NCBI GenBank assembly: GCA_020724905.1
Contig: DYGB01000003.1
Coordinates: 1,431-65,430 of the forward strand
Direction of reading: 5' to 3'
Length of the DNA stretch: 64,000 nucleotides
Source: Candidatus Paceibacter sp.
Lineage (GTDB): Bacteria; Patescibacteriota; Minisyncoccia; UBA6257; JAGOQP01
Made by a program: the position numbers and the translations under genes. Within the stretch, counting starts at the first letter, position 1; each line of letters opens with the position of its first letter. The notes below the pieces were generated by a model that was not told the origin of the DNA, ran no database searches, and saw nothing but the letters and a program-made list of their open reading frames with translations. Positions 2,853-9,102 of the stretch are shown here, one piece after another.

Positions 2853-3058
2853 TTGAAGTAAAAAGAAAAGAGGGAGAATCTTCAAATGCATTCCTGTATC
2901 GTTTTACAAAGAAAATACAACAATCAGGACTCTTAAAAGAAGCTCGTCGAAAACGATTTCATCTTCGAAAGGAGAATAAGAGAGCAAAGAAAGAAGCAAC
3001 ACTCTATCGCATTGATAAGAAGCAAGAGATCGATCGATTGAGAAAGTTAGGACGATAA
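2849..3058 (+). CDS. rpsU: 30S ribosomal protein S21
   Basis: KRKEGESSNAFLYRFTKKIQQSGLLKEARRKRFHLRKENKRAKKEA typical S21. Confidence 0.85.
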   Translation: MIEVKRKEGESSNAFLYRFTKKIQQSGLLKEARRKRFHLRKENKRAKKEATLYRIDKKQEIDRLRKLGR

Positions 3059-3061
3059 CCT

Positions 3062-3517
3062 ATGGAGCATATTGAAGCGTATCTGGAAGAAACCCTCAAG
3101 ATAGCCCTTAAAGAACACGACAGCCACACAGCTGAGATTGTTCGTGGGCTTCGTTCTGTTATTCATAATGCAAGGATTGAGGCGCGAGAGAGAGGGGGTG
3201 AGATAGAAGACAGTGATATTATTGTCTTACTGAAGCGTGAACTTAAAAAGAGACATGAGTCAGCAGAGATGTTTGAAAAAGGTGGTGCAACAGAGCGGGC
3301 AGAAAAAGAGAAAAAGGAAGCAGTCTTTATTGAAACATTACTTCCTCCACAGCTTTCTCAAGAAGCACTTGAAGCTATTGTGCAGACAGTTCTACAAGAA
3401 CATCCTGACGCAACACAAAAAGATATGGGTATGCTTATAAAAGCAGTACTAGAGAAAGCAGAGGATGGAGCTGATGGAAAACGTGTTAGTGAAATGGTAA
3501 AAAACCATCTCTCATAA
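3062..3517 (+). CDS. GatB/YqeY-domain protein
   Basis: YqeY-like helical protein pattern (LKEHDSHTAEIVRGLRSVI...LLKRELKKRHESAEMFEKGG). Confidence 0.75.
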   Translation: MEHIEAYLEETLKIALKEHDSHTAEIVRGLRSVIHNARIEARERGGEIEDSDIIVLLKRELKKRHESAEMFEKGGATERAEKEKKEAVFIETLLPPQLSQEALEAIVQTVLQEHPDATQKDMGMLIKAVLEKAEDGADGKRVSEMVKNHLS

Positions 3518-3521
3518 TGTT

Positions 3522-3935
3522 ATGGGAAATATCATAGAAGTGTATACTCAGAAAAAAGAGTATGAGCGTGAAATTCCTACAGCAAAAAAATATATAACAG
3601 CGCTGTTTCAATATTTCCACATAAAGAACGCACATCTTGCGCTCTTTTTTGTTTCTCCTCAAAAAATGAGGGTGTTAAATAGGAAGTTTCGAGGGAAAGA
3701 TAAGACAACAAATGTCCTTACCTTTGTAGAGCCATCTGATTTTATCCATTCTTCAAAAAGAACACATCTGGGGGAACTCTATATAAATCTTGAGTATATA
3801 AAAAAACACAACCAATCGTTAGTACACATGATTGTACATGGATTTCTTCATATACAGGGGTATGACCACAAGAACGATAAAGAAGAAAAGGAGATGGTGA
3901 CAAAGGAGGGGGAAGTCTTGACTTTTATTGGGTAA
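3522..3935 (+). CDS. ybeY: rRNA maturation endoribonuclease YbeY
   Basis: HGFLHIQGYDH metal-binding motif (H..H..GYDH). Confidence 0.85.
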   Translation: MGNIIEVYTQKKEYEREIPTAKKYITALFQYFHIKNAHLALFFVSPQKMRVLNRKFRGKDKTTNVLTFVEPSDFIHSSKRTHLGELYINLEYIKKHNQSLVHMIVHGFLHIQGYDHKNDKEEKEMVTKEGEVLTFIG

Positions 3936-4029
3936 TATAGTATAATACTATTGTGAACATTAACATTCTACTTAGAGCCTTTGAAAAAGAGTAAAGGGTA
4001 GAGAGTAGAAAAATAAAAGGAGCTATATC

Positions 4030-4674
4030 ATGAAAAAATCAGCAATGATTTCAGGAATGAATTTCGGAAGTGAATTTTTAACAAGTCTGTATAAATCTGT
4101 CTTAAAGGCAGGTGGTACAGAGGAAGACATCTACAACAAGTGCAAAACAGGGAGCTCATTGTTTGAAAAATGGGCAAAGGATATTGTAGAAAACAAAAAA
4201 TCCTATCAACACCTCACAGTCATTGACCAAAATATCCAAATTCCCAAAGCAACCTTCAACAAAGATGAATTCTTCTCTCAAAAATTCATCTGGATGTCAC
4301 CTTCATTTCAGAAAGATATTCTTCCTGAAATAGAACAAGAAATTACTTCTGCTGACTACACCCTTACCTCTCTTAAACTCAACCATCCTCTTTCTAATCA
4401 CGAAATCAGAAAAGACCTTGGAGAAGATGAGGTAGTATCACCTCATCAATGGGCACAAGAACAGTGTGCATTGATAAATACACAATCCCAAGGAAAACCC
4501 GGTTCACTGCTTGTTAACGGATATGCAAATATTCGTTACGTACAACTCAGTAATGGAACAACCCTTGCTGTGTTCGTGCTCTGGGATGCGAATGCTCGCC
4601 AGTGGGACTGCGACACGTGGGAGTTGGACGATGATGGTTGGGATACCGAGTTCAGATTTTTGGCTAGGAGCTAG
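4030..4674 (+). CDS. DGR target protein (C-terminal variable region, likely C-type-lectin-like ligand-binding fold)
   Basis: 214-aa ORF with a good SD (AAGGAG 8 nt upstream). The last ~35 codons (AVFVLWDANARQWDCDTWELDDDGWDTEFRFLARS) are the VR copy. No obvious signal peptide. Confidence 0.8.
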   Translation: MKKSAMISGMNFGSEFLTSLYKSVLKAGGTEEDIYNKCKTGSSLFEKWAKDIVENKKSYQHLTVIDQNIQIPKATFNKDEFFSQKFIWMSPSFQKDILPEIEQEITSADYTLTSLKLNHPLSNHEIRKDLGEDEVVSPHQWAQEQCALINTQSQGKPGSLLVNGYANIRYVQLSNGTTLAVFVLWDANARQWDCDTWELDDDGWDTEFRFLARS

Positions 4675-4676
4675 TT
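4565..4676 (+). repeat. DGR variable repeat (VR)
   Basis: ~110-bp near-repeat of 4999-5109. 16 differences in the ~102-bp core, all where the TR has A (TR AAC/AAT codons become TTC, CTC, GAT, GAC, GGT etc.). No differences at C/G/T positions until the 3' boundary. Confidence 0.85.
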
Positions 4677-4733
4677 CTTAATCTTATCTCCTTATATCCT
4701 TTTCTTGCTTTTTCTCTTTTCCCCTTTTTCTTA

Positions 4734-4761
4734 TTCCCTCTTTTCATATGAAAAGAGGGAA
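4734..4761 (+). other. perfect 11-bp-stem hairpin (ttccctctttt/aaaagagggaa, 6-nt loop) ~60 bp downstream of VR; terminator of target gene and/or DGR homing-associated cruciform
   Basis: Inverted repeat read directly; follows a ~60-nt polypyrimidine tract (4676-4733). Confidence 0.5.
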
Positions 4762-4998
4762 TTTTAATATATACTTAAATTAAGATTTTTAACATTGTTT
4801 TGGTTACGACTAATACAGGAGATCTTCTTGTAAATATATACTGAGATTTTTAACGGACATGTCTGTTAAAAGGGTAGATGTATGTACATGTAAAAAATAA
4901 AACTAGCTCGTACATAATTCTAATGAGTAAAAAAACTCAGCATACGATACAACAATGAGAACATTCGAATTGTGGTGAAAAGGAGGGGATTATGTATT

Positions 4999-5109
4999 TT
5001 GCTGTGAACGTGAACTGGAATGCGAATGATCACCAGTGGAACTGCAACACGTGGAAGTTGGACGATAATGATTGGAATACCGAGAACAGATTTTTGGCTA
5101 GACGCTTGT
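4999..5109 (+). repeat. DGR template repeat (TR)
   Basis: Invariant copy rich in AAC/AAT codons (AVNVNWNANDHQWNCNTWKLDDNDWNTENR in VR frame). Preceded by AGGAGG+ATG, but presumably it functions as an RNA template rather than a coding gene. Confidence 0.85.
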
Positions 5110-5110
5110 T

Positions 5111-5490
5111 TTATTCCTCTCTTCTTCTTTGAAGGGAGGTTTTTGTTTTTCTACTCCATCCATAGAGCATTCTTCCAATCTCAAGAAGTTGTTCTGAAAG
5201 GTGTGTGTACAAAGAATGAGATATGCATTTTTCTTCCCAGGCAAGCTGGAGAAAGAATTTTAGTGTATCGAGTGTTGCAAGGGCAGATTCAATTGTGGCT
5301 AGCTTATCTTGAGGTGGAAGATGAAGAGATATAAATATGGATTCTAATAAATTTAGAAAAGAGTTCTCTATTCTACTTCCAAGTGTATAACGATAGACCT
5401 TTGGAAAATTTTTAAAACATAAAAACCATGCGCTGTATGCATGTTTTGTCTTATATATGATAGACGGTTCTTGCGGGGGGGGGTATTCAT
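5111..5490 (-). CDS. avd: Avd-like accessory variability determinant (four-helix-bundle protein), start disrupted or shifted at a poly-C tract
   Basis: Manual minus-strand translation ...YKTKHAYSAWFLCFKNFPKVYRYTLGSRIENSFLNLLESIFISL...LATIESALATLDTLKFFLQLAWEEKCISHSLYTHLSEQLLEIGRMLYGWSRKTK* matches the Avd / TIGR02436 four-helix-bundle pattern (FPK.eRY.L.sqi, El.eiGkmL.GW). The only upstream ATG (5490-5488) is +1 out of frame across a C9 run (plus-strand G9 at 5475-5483). Confidence 0.55.
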
Positions 5491-6481
5491 GGAAATATTA
5501 CACAATATGTTTAATAGTATAACGTCTCTTGAAAATATATTGCAGGCGTGGTCTGAGTTTAGCAAAGGAAAAAGGAAGAGGAAAGACGTTCAAGAATTTT
5601 CAGTAACATTATTTGATAATATATTTCTTCTTCATAAAGACCTTGTGAATCAAAGGTATGCACATGGTCCATATGAACATTTTAGAATATGTGATCCAAA
5701 ACCAAGGGATATTCATAAGGCTTCTGTAAGGGATCGTATTGTTCATAGAGCTGTATACAGAATTCTGTATCCATATTTTGATAAAACATTTATTTCTGAT
5801 TCGTATTCATGTAGAAATAAAAAAGGGACACACAAGGCTTTAAGACAATTTGAGTCGTATGTGAATAAGGTTACAAAAAATAACACAAAACAATGCTGGG
5901 TTTTGAAATGTGATATAAGAAAATTCTTTGCAACAATTGACCATAAAATTCTTTTAAACATAATACGCAGAGATAGTATTGATGAAAAAACTATGATGAT
6001 ATGTGGGGAGATTATTAAGAGCTTTTCGTATTATTCTGGGAAAGGGCTCCCGCTTGGAAATTTAACATCACAACTGTTTTCTAATATCTATATGAATGAG
6101 TTGGATAAATGTATAAAACATATCCTTAAAATAAAATATTACATTCGATATGCTGATGATTTTATTATTTTAGATAATGACTATAAAAAACTAGAATACA
6201 TAGTGAATGAGATTCAATCGTTTCTTTTAAAAGATCTTAGGTTAGAGTTACATCCTCAAAAGATCTTTATAAAAACTATTTATTCGGGAGTGGATTTTCT
6301 CGGGTGGGTTCATTTTGTTGATCATCGAGTTCTACGCACAAGTACAAAAAGAAGAATGTTTTCAAACACAAGAAATAACAATAAAAAAGAATCATACTAT
6401 TCATATAAAGGGCTTCTTTCTCACGGGAATGCATATAAACTTGCAAGAGAACTAGAGAGGATAAAAGATAATCCCCTATAA
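5489..6481 (+). CDS. DGR reverse transcriptase
   Basis: Group II-like RT domains 0-7 (LENILQAWSEF..., PRDIHKASVRDRIVHRAV, CDIRKFFATIDH, YADD) with LGNLTSQ in place of the group II QGxxxSP, the DGR RT hallmark. No maturase or endonuclease domain (~330 aa). The ORF is listed from 5441; the likely start is Met at 5489 (MEILHNMF). Confidence 0.85.
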   Translation: MEILHNMFNSITSLENILQAWSEFSKGKRKRKDVQEFSVTLFDNIFLLHKDLVNQRYAHGPYEHFRICDPKPRDIHKASVRDRIVHRAVYRILYPYFDKTFISDSYSCRNKKGTHKALRQFESYVNKVTKNNTKQCWVLKCDIRKFFATIDHKILLNIIRRDSIDEKTMMICGEIIKSFSYYSGKGLPLGNLTSQLFSNIYMNELDKCIKHILKIKYYIRYADDFIILDNDYKKLEYIVNEIQSFLLKDLRLELHPQKIFIKTIYSGVDFLGWVHFVDHRVLRTSTKRRMFSNTRNNNKKESYYSYKGLLSHGNAYKLARELERIKDNPL

Positions 6482-6550
6482 TTTGCTCTTGACCCATTTT
6501 TCCTTTAGAATGGAGTACACAGAGTAACGAGATTCTTTCTATTTATATCT

Positions 6551-7813
6551 ATGTTTATTACCGCACTTGACTTAGGATCATCCACGATAAAAGGGGTTAT
6601 TGCCCAACAGAGAAAAGATGGTTCTGTTGTGTTTGTAAAGACGATAAAGAAGGAATCAAAGGGAATAAAGAGGGGAGATATTCAGTATCCAAATGAAACA
6701 GTAAAAGCACTCTCTGATGTCCTTAACGAAATTCGTCATTTTGAAAAGAAAGCTCTTAAGAATCTTGTGATAGGACTTTCTAGTACAAAAACTGGATTTC
6801 ATCTTTCTCGTGCTGCCGTTTCAATTCCTCGTCCTGATTTTGAAATTATTCAAGAAGATGTAGAACGAGTACTTCAAGAATCAACTGCAGTTAATATTCC
6901 TCCAGGATGGCAGATTCTTCACTCACTTCCTCGTGAGTTTGTTATCGATGGTATTGAAGTTGATGATACTGATGTGGTGGGACTTTCAGGGAAAAAACTA
7001 GAAGTGAATGTTGTTCTTATTACTGCATTTTCTTCAGTGTATAAAAACTTTCTTAAAGTATCCCAACTTCTTTTTGGAAAGAAGGCAGGACTTGCAGGAA
7101 CATTGGTATTCACTCCTCTTGCTTCAGAACGTGCTGTACTCACAAAGAATCAGCGAGAACTTGGTGTTGCAATGGTTGATATTGGATTTGGGACAACAAG
7201 TATTGTGGTATATCAAGATGGAAGAATGTTGCTTTCAAAAGTACTCCCTATTGGGGCAGGAAATATCACCAATGATATAGCGATTGGATTGAAATGTTCA
7301 GTATCTGTTGCTGAGAAGATAAAGCGCTCATATGGATGTGCGTATGCTCGGGATATTTCAGTAAAAGAGAAAATTGATCTATCTGAATATGATGAAAATC
7401 TGTCATCAAATATATCACGACGATATGTTGCTGAAATTATCGAAGCACGGGTACGAGAGATTTTTTCCCTTGTTGATGCTGAACTAAAAGGAATAGCAAA
7501 AGCAGGAAAGCTCCCAGCAGGAGCAGTACTGGTTGGGGGAGGGGCTCGTCTTTCAGGTATCGTTGATATTGCACGAGATGAACTAAGGTTCCCTGCACAG
7601 GTTGGATTTCCTAATACTGAAGAATATGAAACGTCTCATGGGAGCGTTGCTGACAATCTTGATGCCCCTGAAATGGTGGGAGCATGCGGTCTTATTTTCA
7701 CCAAAACTGATACGACATCAAAGCACAGACCATCAATATTTCCTTCACAACAGAAGGAGGAATATGGATCGTGGATTAAAAAAATCTTTGCTATAGTAAA
7801 AGCATCTGAATAA
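6551..7813 (+). CDS. ftsA: cell division protein FtsA
   Basis: Actin-like ATPase, MFITALDLGSSTIKGVI, VDIGFGTTSIVVYQDG. Confidence 0.9.
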   Translation: MFITALDLGSSTIKGVIAQQRKDGSVVFVKTIKKESKGIKRGDIQYPNETVKALSDVLNEIRHFEKKALKNLVIGLSSTKTGFHLSRAAVSIPRPDFEIIQEDVERVLQESTAVNIPPGWQILHSLPREFVIDGIEVDDTDVVGLSGKKLEVNVVLITAFSSVYKNFLKVSQLLFGKKAGLAGTLVFTPLASERAVLTKNQRELGVAMVDIGFGTTSIVVYQDGRMLLSKVLPIGAGNITNDIAIGLKCSVSVAEKIKRSYGCAYARDISVKEKIDLSEYDENLSSNISRRYVAEIIEARVREIFSLVDAELKGIAKAGKLPAGAVLVGGGARLSGIVDIARDELRFPAQVGFPNTEEYETSHGSVADNLDAPEMVGACGLIFTKTDTTSKHRPSIFPSQQKEEYGSWIKKIFAIVKASE

Positions 7814-7818
7814 TACCT

Positions 7819-9102
7819 ATGCCAACACAAAAGAAACAAAATACAATAGAAAAAAAGTCCTCTCCAAAGAAAACAACGAAGAGTATTTCAACTAAGAAAA
7901 AAAAGAACGTAGTTACAAGTAGCACAAGAAAATCCTCTTCAAAAAAGAACACACATGTTGCAAGAATAAAGGTGGTAGGAATTGGAGGAGGGGGTGGAAA
8001 TGCACTCACTCGTATGACTGATCATTTTCCTCGATCAGTTGAAATGATTGCGATTAATACAGATTTACAAGATCTCGAACAAACACAGGCACGAAAAAAG
8101 ATATATATTGGAAAACAACTCACTAAGGGACTCGGGGCTGGTATGGATCCAGAACTTGGCATGAGAGCTGCTGAAGAGAACAGAGATGATATTGCAGAGT
8201 CTCTTAAAGGAGCTGACATCGTATTCCTTACCGCAGGATTTGGAGGAGGAACAGGAAGTGGTGCAACACCTGTTGTTGCAGAAATTGCTCAAGAACTTGG
8301 CATCCTTACCGTTGCGGTAGTAACAAAACCTTTTTCATTTGAAGGTTCTCAACGAGCAACGATAGCACAAGATGCTCTAGGAAGACTCAAAGACAGAGTT
8401 GATGCCTACATTACCGTATCAAACGATAAGATCTTTTCTGTTATCAATAAAGAGACCTCTCTGAAAAAAGCCTTTGAAGCAATTGATGATGTATTACAAA
8501 ATGCAGTCCTTGGAGTGACTGAGATTATTATTACCCCAGGCATTATTAACGTAGATTTCGCTGATGTTCGTGCCATTATGCAGGGAGCAGGACCTTCCAT
8601 TATTGGTCTGGGGGTTGGGTCAGGAAAAGAACGAGGTATTATGGCTGCCAATGTTGCCCTTAACTCTCCACTGCTTGAAACCACTGTTGATGGAGCAAAA
8701 GGAGTACTCTTTAGTGTTTCTGGACACAAGGATATTACCATGAATGAAATCAATGAGATTGCTCAGTCTATTGCAGAAAACGCAGATCCTTCAGCACGTA
8801 TTATCTTTGGAACGTATCATGACAGGAAGCTTTCAAAAGGAAAGATAAAGGTAACACTTATCGCTACCGGATTTGGGTCTTCGTATGGAAGAAATGTTTC
8901 TCTCTTTGGCGAACCATCATTTTCTCAAGCAACACTCTTTGGAGATGAAGGCAATGATGAAAGTGAAGATACCTACGTCCCAGAAGAACAGAAAGAAGAA
9001 TCTAGGCCAGTAATAACAAAAGATACTGAAGAGACAAGTGAAGAAGAGTTGTGGGATATTCCCGCATTTTTGAGAAAAAAGAAAGGGAAAAAGGGTAAAT
9101 AA
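7819..9102 (+). CDS. ftsZ: cell division GTPase FtsZ (with lysine-rich N-terminal extension)
   Basis: GGGGGNA tubulin signature, GGGTGSGATPVVAEIA, T7 loop region. Confidence 0.9.
   Translation: MPTQKKQNTIEKKSSPKKTTKSISTKKKKNVVTSSTRKSSSKKNTHVARIKVVGIGGGGGNALTRMTDHFPRSVEMIAINTDLQDLEQTQARKKIYIGKQLTKGLGAGMDPELGMRAAEENRDDIAESLKGADIVFLTAGFGGGTGSGATPVVAEIAQELGILTVAVVTKPFSFEGSQRATIAQDALGRLKDRVDAYITVSNDKIFSVINKETSLKKAFEAIDDVLQNAVLGVTEIIITPGIINVDFADVRAIMQGAGPSIIGLGVGSGKERGIMAANVALNSPLLETTVDGAKGVLFSVSGHKDITMNEINEIAQSIAENADPSARIIFGTYHDRKLSKGKIKVTLIATGFGSSYGRNVSLFGEPSFSQATLFGDEGNDESEDTYVPEEQKEESRPVITKDTEETSEEELWDIPAFLRKKKGKKGK

Follow-up and report, generated by a model that had tools for sequence, protein, structure and literature searches.

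Among the diversity-generating retroelements (DGRs) of CPR bacteria, 90% have the order template repeat (TR), accessory variability determinant (avd, in brackets in the published scheme) and reverse transcriptase (RT), that is TR-(avd)-RT, designated architecture B3 (Wu et al. 2018, PMC5758913). The CPR elements of DGR clade 2 have been reported to be cellular, and targets that lack a signal peptide or a known domain are typical for them (Roux et al. 2021, PMC8144416). The paradigm for the mechanism comes from the Bordetella phage BPP-1, in which the order is mtd-avd-TR-brt.

The element described here is located between ybeY (3522-3935) and ftsA (6551-7813) in a window of 64 kb, by which we mean the whole stretch of DNA that was analysed. 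This location had been given in the initial annotation and was confirmed. The order is target gene with the variable repeat (VR) at its end, spacer, TR, avd on the minus strand and RT, and gene order, strands and host group are those of the CPR B3 elements and of DGR clade 2 (PMC8144416). Like other CPR DGRs, the element is chromosomal and has a small target without transmembrane (TM) segment, signal peptide or known domain. Nothing categorical sets it apart from them; the differences are the small target subfamily and an avd gene that here has no canonical start codon. The cytoplasmic-looking target and the architecture had been put forward as distinctive, and both are already the norm among CPR DGRs (PMC8144416, PMC5758913). 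We are confident, at roughly 93%, that this is a chromosomal CPR (Patescibacteria) DGR between ybeY and ftsA that acts by the mechanism proposed below. It typifies a kind of DGR whose frequent occurrence in these ultra-small bacteria was known before.

With the BPP-1 element it shares the adenine-specific transfer from TR to VR, a basic Avd, an RT with homology along the entire protein (E 1e-40) and an I/LGxxxSQ motif in both, and a stem-loop of about 9-11 bp after the TR; the IMH-like boundary of the VR and the inverted repeat beyond it may be further counterparts. The avd gene is located 3´ of the TR on the opposite strand, whereas in BPP-1 it lies upstream on the same strand. Because of this position and orientation, the stretch of RNA that separates TR from RT runs antisense to avd, and the TR is preceded by a non-coding structured leader instead of the 3´ end of avd. 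Furthermore, the element described here is cellular, its target is not Mtd-like and its IMH-like sequence is not GC-rich.

Adenine-specific repeat pair and its 3´ boundary

A direct repeat of 112 nt was found at 4565-4676 and 4999-5110, with an offset of 434. The first copy contains the VR core (4565-4667, plus strand), corresponding to the final 34 codons of the target gene, and the second copy is the TR (4999-5110, plus strand), which consists of a core (4999-5101) and an IMH*-like end reaching to 5110. The two cores align in exact register over 103 nt with 15 mismatches. All of these are located at TR adenines (15/15) and none at the non-adenine positions (0/71), an adenine-only pattern with a hypergeometric P of 1.4e-9; read from TR to VR, the substitutions are eight A>G, five A>T and two A>C. 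Differences confined to TR adenines had been proposed in the initial annotation, and the alignment bears this out, with one correction of the count: 16 differences had been assigned to the core, and the 16th (5102, A>G) is a position of the 3´ boundary, beside two non-adenine differences (5103, 5107). If every adenine of the TR is replaced by N, the resulting pattern matches twice in the 64-kb window, namely at the VR and the TR themselves, with 0 matches expected.

The described richness of the TR in AAC and AAT codons was also found, with five AAC and four AAT codons counted. Of the 32 TR adenines, 31 are located at codon positions 1-2, and all 15 changes in the VR are non-synonymous and fall at codon positions 1 or 2 of the ORF 4030-4674. 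Among target homologs of different species, variation occurs exactly at the codons templated by TR adenines and the scaffold residues are invariant. Such a distribution fits, without proving, the action of a DGR in this lineage.

The 3´ boundary of the VR (4653-4680, plus strand) contains 15 nt shared with the TR (CAGATTTTTGGCTAG), including three unmutated adenines; past this segment VR and TR diverge at three of the next six positions (4668, 4669 and 4673). By analogy with the IMH/IMH* sequences of Wu et al. (PMC5758913) we assign it as IMH-like, and it may have the corresponding function. The conserved 3´ flank of the VR (4675-4765, plus strand) comprises a CT-rich tract, a palindromic hairpin and a T-tail. 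The hairpin is a perfect one of 13 bp (4733-4762), located 66 nt past the VR core, and a compensatory change in the palindrome was seen in one related locus (L008). Mean column identity of the flank over three genomic contexts is 83%, compared with about 55% at synonymous sites. The flank is thus far a candidate for the terminator of the target gene and/or for the inverted repeat following the IMH. A homology between the hairpins downstream of VR and TR is seen in the window and missing from most relatives, and it was rejected.

Non-coding elements around the template repeat

Upstream of the TR, an alignment of 50 loci evaluated with RNAalifold revealed a structured RNA leader (4924-4998, plus strand). 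It consists of a hairpin P1 (4924-4927 / 4936-4939), the linker GCATACGATACA and a hairpin P2 (4952-4956 / 4969-4973), and 3´ of P2 a GGUG is found, with a purine-rich segment reaching to the TR. In the 50 loci, 83.5% of the cells are paired, compared with 62% in shuffled and 35-52% in slid alignments, and the covariation score is 0.56 versus 0.22, a value of 0.56 being attained by none of the 500 shuffles. The initial annotation had ascribed the best Shine-Dalgarno (SD) sequence of the window to the cassette. An SD-like run does exist before the TR, however, it is part of the conserved leader and no conserved start codon follows it. The ORF 4992-5132, which has an SD and an ATG and is in the frame of the TR, was considered as a translated TR peptide and rejected, since relatives carry TCG, CCG, TCA or other triplets in place of the ATG and the purine-rich run belongs to the conserved leader. 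Likewise rejected was the ORF 5020-5334, listed as a gene in the JGI record, which has no family match and overlaps avd in antisense orientation.

A stem-loop with a U-tract (5116-5150, plus strand) starts 15 nt after the TR and overlaps the 3´ end of avd, which is encoded on the opposite strand. It has a stem of 9 bp (CCUCUCUUC / GAAGGGAGG) and a 6-nt loop and is followed by UUUUUGUUUU. Such a stem-loop was present in 43 of 51 loci, with varied inner pairs, compared with 1.3% of random windows. An Avd-binding stem-loop has been predicted for 207 of 278 Avd-containing DGRs (bioRxiv 10.1101/2023.10.23.563531), and the structure found here agrees with the reported element. By this resemblance it is a candidate for an Avd-binding element and/or a terminator of the TR RNA.

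A scan for the sigma-70 consensus yielded no promoter candidate for the TR RNA that passed, and the Rfam search of 3500-7000 found no family. In the Bordetella RNA a long-range duplex is formed around the TR, whereas here the analogous pairing of TR-upstream and TR-downstream sequences (a cPRT-Stop analogue) is without statistical support, RNAduplex energies being no better than for shuffles (mean z -0.24). A GGUGG:CCACC pairing recurs among the loci and is confounded by the conserved G-G-W codons of Avd.

The avd gene and the adjoining G tract

An Avd occurs in about 74% of DGRs, and here its gene separates TR from RT in minus-strand orientation (5111-5464; about 116 amino acids, pI 9.3, stop codon TAA at 5113-5111). 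The frame 5461-5114 matches the Pfam family bAvd (PF22296) with 57.7 bits at a cutoff of 40, and phrog_3206 ("Avd protein of DGR") with an E of 1e-20. The same minus-strand layout was present in all 100 of the 100 relatives for which enough upstream DNA was available. The gene had been overlooked in the initial annotation as well as by gene callers because it is located on the minus strand and has no ATG, GTG or TTG start. The interpretation as a DGR is supported, and those of the proposed refuting checks that were run, on the mismatch pattern and on the grouping of the RT, favoured it.

Neither the window nor a diverged relative, L007, has an ATG, GTG or TTG in frame with avd; the two lineages differ at 45% of synonymous sites. 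Translation likely starts at ATC (5461-5459) or ATA (5458-5456), positions at which GTG, ATG or TTG is found in relatives. The lack of a canonical avd start extends to about 16 of 67 relatives and suggests that initiation is non-canonical, not that the gene is decaying. Since a canonical start codon is lacking, the expression level of avd is uncertain. The minus-strand ATG at 5490-5488, which could be joined to avd by slippage in the C9 run, was rejected as a start: it is the reverse complement of the RT start and ribosome binding site region, and across 65 loci its frame relative to avd is nearly uniformly distributed (16/30/19). In most relatives avd starts with a TTG, GTG or ATG downstream of the homopolymer run.

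The missing start codon in both lineages might also indicate that the element is a DGR by descent that is now inactive or barely active, with a frozen VR and an Avd that is translated poorly or not at all. Such a view could also draw on the VR, which is identical across the three assemblies carrying the element, assemblies that may sample one population, and on the target homologs, some of which appear to be orphans, neither RT nor TR being present within 6-10 kb of them. We consider this reading unlikely: avd is under strong purifying selection (dN/dS 0.098 against L007), purifying selection also acts on the RT (0.18) and the scaffold of the target (0.24) in the same comparison, and the cis elements have stayed intact at the RNA and the DNA level. 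In addition, a relic would gather non-adenine differences, whereas TR and VR match at each of the 71 non-adenine core positions, and the relatives without a canonical avd start argue against decay as stated above.

Between the 5´ end of avd and the ATG of the RT at 5489, a stretch of nine G residues (5475-5483, plus strand) is located 5 nt upstream of this ATG; it is the only G/C run of at least 7 in the window. Of 98 related loci, 83 have a G or AG tract at the avd/RT junction, and tract length varies even among elements that are otherwise identical, with no difference in the neighbouring 400 nt. An explanation of the run as a plain SD sequence of the RT fits the window and does not fit the clade, in which the distance varies from 4 to 52 nt and, downstream of the G or AG tract, there is usually a distinct SD of the AGGAG type. 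It might be possible that the tract acts as a slippage-prone switch for the expression of avd and/or RT and, at the same time, that the target, which like most of its family has no export signal, is an intracellular hypervariable binder with a minimal fold new to the PDB; we regard this combination as rather improbable. If true, the hypermutator would be under stochastic control, with mutagenesis being switched on and off at the population level. For the leader hairpins and the G/AG tract, no description was found in the literature covered, to which Paul et al. 2017 does not belong.

Target protein, genomic context and reverse transcriptase

The target gene (4030-4674, plus strand) encodes an acidic protein of 214 amino acids (pI 5.1). 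Upstream, a promoter-like site (3918-3946, plus strand; TTGACT-17-TATAAT) has 11 of 12 matches to the consensus and would serve as the promoter of this gene, and an SD sequence, AAAGGAG, lies ahead of the ATG at 4030. The protein is made up of an N-terminal three-helix module and an alpha/beta domain, with the VR as the last part of the latter. Its structural model is confident, and in this model the similarity to the systems compared, the C-type-lectin-fold variable proteins (Mtd, TvpA 2y3c and the archaeal AvpA) and the FGE-sulfatase-like domains, appears weak. No match for the target was obtained in Pfam, NCBIfam, PHROGs, PADLOC or the sequence and profile searches of the PDB, nor with Foldseek in PDB or BFVD. 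The subfamily has only seven close homologs, and the whole family has more than 1000 members. Up to 20 codons could be recoded, giving about 10^17.8 possible proteins with changes on the C-terminal beta-strands, and the fixed residues of the scaffold are W, A, Q, C, L, F and R.

DGRs are often phage-borne, and RT and Avd both match PHROG families (phrog_1423 with 342 bits for the RT). It could be argued on these grounds that the cassette belongs to a prophage or another mobile element and that, as in the Bordetella phage BPP-1, the protein being diversified is a receptor-binding protein of a phage. The genomic context makes this very improbable: the neighbours are the housekeeping genes ybeY, ftsA and ftsZ, phage genes are not found nearby, and the arrangement ybeY-DGR-ftsA is kept in the diverged relative, in which YbeY is 91% and FtsA 97% identical. 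The target has neither a PHROG match nor a structural match in BFVD, and a cellular nature is what has been reported for the CPR clade 2 DGRs (PMC8144416). The approximately 120 relatives of the RT (52-65% identity), from which the host group was judged, all come from Patescibacteria MAGs or from groundwater and sediment metagenomes; the layout is common to these loci, and TR/VR pairs with adenine-specific differences are present in most of them.

The RT (5489-6481, plus strand) has 330 amino acids, with LGNLTSQ at residue 189 and YADD at 221, and it ends past the thumb region without a maturase, endonuclease or other extra domain. The fingers and palm (RVT_1) are common to this RT and the group II intron RTs, in which motif 4 reads QGxxxSP. 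The initial annotation had derived a DGR-type RT from the LGNLTSQ motif and had noted the lack of a maturase domain, and motif, assignment and lack of the domain stand. The best match in the PDB is 8ub7, which we take to be the RT of the Bordetella phage DGR (E 9.5e-41 over residues 5-296, LGNLTSQ aligning with its IGSLTSQ); the best group II RT reaches 6e-19.

In NCBIfam, the RT matches the group II RT/maturase family TIGR04416 best, with weaker matches to Drt3a and retron RTs and to an AbiA model, and PADLOC models for DRT match the RT domain. That an ordinary duplication happens to lie beside an unrelated RT (group II intron, retron or DRT/Abi), with the adenine pattern being coincidental, is nevertheless effectively refuted already, since these scores are far below the curated cutoffs (148.8 bits versus 300 for TIGR04416, 82 versus 200 among the weaker matches, AbiA likewise), 8ub7 outscores every RT of group II introns and retrons by about 20 orders of magnitude, extra domains are lacking, Rfam has no group II intron or retron RNA in 3500-7000 (group II tested to E 1), the neighbours are avd and housekeeping genes, and the adenine-only pattern (P about 1e-9) recurs in TR/VR pairs with the same layout in about 50 related loci.

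For the chromosomal DGR, we observed the repeat pair with its adenine-only pattern, the identity of RT and Avd, the conservation and covariation of RNA and DNA elements and the variability of VR positions in homologs; for transcript boundaries, cDNA synthesis, homing and the pairing of proteins with RNA elements we follow the Bordetella phage paradigm. The spacer would give rise to a non-coding RNA made up of the two-hairpin leader, the 103-nt TR and the stem-loop with U-tract. RT and the basic Avd would bind this RNA and reverse-transcribe the TR with random bases being incorporated opposite adenines. The cDNA would then be exchanged for the VR that closes the target gene, with the IMH-like boundary setting the 3´ limit and the conserved VR flank and its palindrome probably assisting homing. 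As a result, the C-terminal beta-strands of a small target without signal peptide would be recoded, with the scaffold remaining fixed.

As a DGR, the element adds little, since DGRs with this architecture and with targets that have neither known domain nor signal peptide are known in abundance from CPR bacteria. Its value is that of a clean, compact and intact example in a conserved chromosomal context. Together with the approximately 120 relatives, it makes the non-coding anatomy of a CPR-type element readable, with leader, stem-loop, homing flank and variable tract; the covarying leader, the stem-loop after the TR, the VR flank, the G/AG tract and the target model are the new details. The cis elements provide constructs for an in vitro reconstitution of a CPR DGR and sites that can be inspected in metagenomic reads. 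The model of the target family is a starting point for a question raised in the literature: are the targets of CPR DGRs truly proteins outside the membrane, and which partners do they bind?

The repeat pair, the reverse transcriptase and the cassette architecture

The cassette is a complete diversity-generating retroelement (DGR), as stated in the initial annotation, and with the accessory variability determinant gene (avd) it is more complete than described there. A repeat finder paired 4565-4676 with 4999-5110 as direct repeats of 112 nt (offset 434), confirming the earlier placement at 4565-4676 and in the region 4999-5109. The in-register alignment of the 103-nt core, comparing the variable repeat (VR, 4565-4667) with the template repeat (TR, 4999-5101), contains 15 mismatches, all of which are an A in the downstream copy (five A>T, two A>C and eight A>G), whereas none of the 71 non-adenine positions differ. 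With 32 A in 103 positions, the chance of all 15 mismatches falling on adenines is 1.4e-9. Tabulating the alignment by TR base thus bore out the claim that differences are confined to TR adenines; of the 16 differences originally counted in the core, 15 are located there, but the sixteenth (5102) lies at the 3´ boundary of the repeat, beside non-adenine differences at 5103 and 5107. With each TR adenine replaced by N, the pattern matches just the VR and TR sites in the 64-kb window (0 expected by chance). All 15 substitutions are at codon positions 1 or 2 of the target ORF (4030-4674); read in the same frame, the TR contains five AAC and four AAT codons and has 31 of its 32 adenines at these positions. 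The coding capacity of the TR is about 10^17.8 protein variants (20 codons).

ORF 5489-6481 encodes a 330-aa reverse transcriptase (RT; Pfam RVT_1) with the motifs LGNLTSQ and YADD and a match of 342 bits to phrog_1423. The first assignment as a DGR-type RT with LGNLTSQ holds: the motif is present and the best solved relative is 8ub7 (328-aa chain, residues 5-296 aligned, E 9.5e-41), compared to 6e-19 for the best group II intron RT and about 1e-6 for retron RTs, and none of the NCBIfam models for group II, Drt and retron RTs came near its cutoff. We take 8ub7 to be linked to a preprint on the Bordetella phage bRT-Avd-RNA complex. That complex has been investigated by cryo-EM (bioRxiv 10.1101/2023.10.23.563531).

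RT scans yielded relatives with 52-65% identity, 41 of them at genome loci and 79 at metagenome loci, the named ones all being Patescibacteria/CPR MAGs, or groundwater and sediment metagenomes. Wherever enough upstream sequence was available (100 loci), avd is without exception located on the minus strand directly upstream of, and divergent from, the RT gene. A DGR-finder-style scan detected TR/VR pairs with adenine-dominated mismatches at about 50 of about 60 distinct loci, and in loci with such pairs the order is invariably VR, spacer, TR, avd(-), RT(+); the spacer between VR and TR ranges from about 240 to 410 nt and is most commonly about 320-350 nt. The layout of our cassette matches architecture B3, "TR-(avd)-RT", of Wu et al. 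(PMC5758913), which is published for 90% of CPR DGRs, and is therefore known and typical; as a whole the cassette is likewise typical of the CPR clade and a DGR of known type. One related locus (L061) carries two VR copies (1486-1600 and 2965-3079) for a single TR (3354-3468), with 15 adenine-only mismatches each, as well as a 168-nt exact repeat (1778-1945 and 3257-3424), and its sequence indicates a tandemly duplicated target.

The gene context agrees with the reported location between ybeY and ftsA: the cassette is flanked by ybeY on one side and ftsA/ftsZ on the other. A diverged relative, L007, keeps the ybeY-DGR-ftsA context (YbeY 91%, FtsA 97% and target 71% identical), which was found in none of the other RT relatives. 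This conservation argues that the element is chromosomal and vertically inherited in this lineage. Across the DGR the window does not differ from a Logan contig or from an independent JGI contig; the latter (L005) shows just five differences to the window over 14.7 kb, all within 46 nt of ftsZ (8739-8784), a cluster that could be a local strain polymorphism or a recombination patch. The identity of the DGR across contigs is uninformative on current activity.

The avd gene

On the minus strand, 127 codons from 5494 to 5114 form an open frame, which was recognised as avd by its matches to Pfam bAvd (PF22296; 57.7 bits, cutoff 40, model positions 6-106 of 107) and to phrog_3206, "Avd protein of DGR" (E 1e-20). 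The pI of its product (9.3) is close to the average of published Avd proteins (9.5). The gene was present neither in the ORF list of the window nor in the initial annotation, because the frame contains no ATG, GTG or TTG ahead of its last 20 codons. L007 carries an avd likewise lacking a canonical start; the start regions without in-frame ATG, GTG or TTG are 5456-5464 in the window (minus strand) and 1922-1930 in L007. Between the two, avd is more constrained than the RT or the target scaffold, with a dN/dS of 0.098 (pS 0.45) compared to 0.18 and 0.24, and each of the other five frames of the avd DNA contains 4-7 stops. Strong constraint together with these stops argues that avd is a functional gene. 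At or adjoining the site matching ATC ATA of the window (5461-5456) most relatives have TTG, GTG or ATG, which suggests that avd initiation is non-canonical at this site. About 16 of 67 related elements have no canonical avd start.

Two plus-strand ORFs without family matches (4992-5132 and 5020-5334), both in the ORF list, overlap the TR and are antisense to avd. The JGI record calls one such ORF as a 102-aa gene and leaves the opposite-strand avd uncalled.

The target protein and its homologs

For the 214-aa target no Pfam, NCBIfam, PHROG, PADLOC or PDB sequence match was found, and just seven close homologs were present among 5.8 billion sequences. Their alignment shows variation at the TR-adenine-templated positions on an invariant scaffold of W, A, Q, C, L, F and R residues; the TR-encoded scaffold AVNVNWNA..QWNCN.W.L..N.WN..NRF was found again in many RT relatives. 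By profile search the target belongs to a large family, with 1143 representatives (E<1e-3) that are mostly 200-230 aa long, and a hydrophobic N-terminal segment is absent in 108 of 122 full-length members. Roux et al. (PMC8144416) reported that targets with neither signal peptide nor known domain are typical of the CPR clade. Three homologs (P0005, P0006 and P0007) are located in two other genomic settings (fmt/ribonucleotide reductase; pspC/DUF975), where neither an RT nor a TR was found within 6-10 kb; the homologous genes lie at 6001-6579 in L001, L002 and L004, at 2357-2935 in L003 and at 9963-10487 in L008. P0005 and P0006 have a hydrophobic N-terminal anchor in place of the soluble N-terminal module. 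The conserved VR 3´ flank with its palindrome is also present in the homologs of these contexts, which may be either orphans or targets served remotely by a DGR at another site of the genome.

Non-coding elements and the variable G tract

Upstream of the target a near-consensus promoter-like site (3918-3946) and a strong SD are present. At the VR 3´ boundary, 15 nt match the TR exactly, including three unmutated adenines, ahead of the VR/TR divergence (IMH/IMH*-like). Beyond it the sequence is first CT-rich and then forms a perfect palindrome of 13 bp with T-tail (4733-4762). The VR 3´ flank of about 95 nt is 83% conserved in five loci from three genomic contexts, compared to an identity of about 55% at synonymous sites of the window and L007, which argues that the flank is under selection; the palindrome shows a compensatory double change among the five loci. 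This conservation fits a predicted homing-site or terminator role. In most relatives a strong hairpin is found 42-66 nt past the VR.

Upstream of the TR, a motif of about 75 nt with two hairpins and conserved linkers is common to 50 loci. The paired cells of P1 (4924-4927/4936-4939) and P2 (4952-4956/4969-4973, recovered by RNAalifold) amount to 83.5%, compared to 62% after shuffling and 35-52% with the partner slid, and the covariation score of 0.56 (0.22 shuffled) was reached by 0 of 500 shuffles. This strong covariation points to a conserved two-hairpin RNA leader at 4924-4998, for which Rfam gave no match. What had been taken for the best SD of the window lies within a purine-rich part of this leader, and the next ATG is unconserved; the apparent strong SD and ATG at 4978-4994 belong to the leader and are not a conserved translation start. 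At 5116-5150, 15 nt past the TR, a 9-bp stem-loop and UUUUUGUUUU overlap the final codons of avd on the opposite strand. The stem-loop (CUCCC...GGGAG with U-tract) is present in 43 of 51 loci compared to 1.3% of random windows, with a modal stem length of 9 bp, variable inner pairs and, most commonly, a tetraloop. It fits the Avd-binding stem-loop predicted downstream of the TR in 207 of 278 Avd-containing DGRs (bioRxiv 10.1101/2023.10.23.563531), and it also looks like an intrinsic terminator. Support for a long-range duplex bracketing the TR was sought and none was obtained.

The region separating the avd 5´ end from the RT start contains G9 (5475-5483), the sole G/C homopolymer of at least 7 in the 64-kb window. 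At the same position 83 of 98 related loci have such a tract, (G) of at least 7 (up to 13) in 74 and (AG)n of 9-27 nt in nine. Its length differs within six groups whose adjacent 400-nt RT coding sequence is 100% identical (13/10, 10/13, 10/11, 9/8, 6/10 and AG 17/21 nt). The G/AG tract thus resembles a slippage-prone sequence within a divergent control region and may be a contingency tract, but the length differences may also be homopolymer sequencing or assembly errors. The RT SD alone does not account for the tract, which is located 4-52 nt from the RT start and mostly has a separate SD after it, and comparison of avd frames across related loci rejected an avd frameshift site. No description of the G/AG tract was found in the DGR literature searched. 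For specialists, the map of cis-elements and this variable tract might be of value for follow-up.
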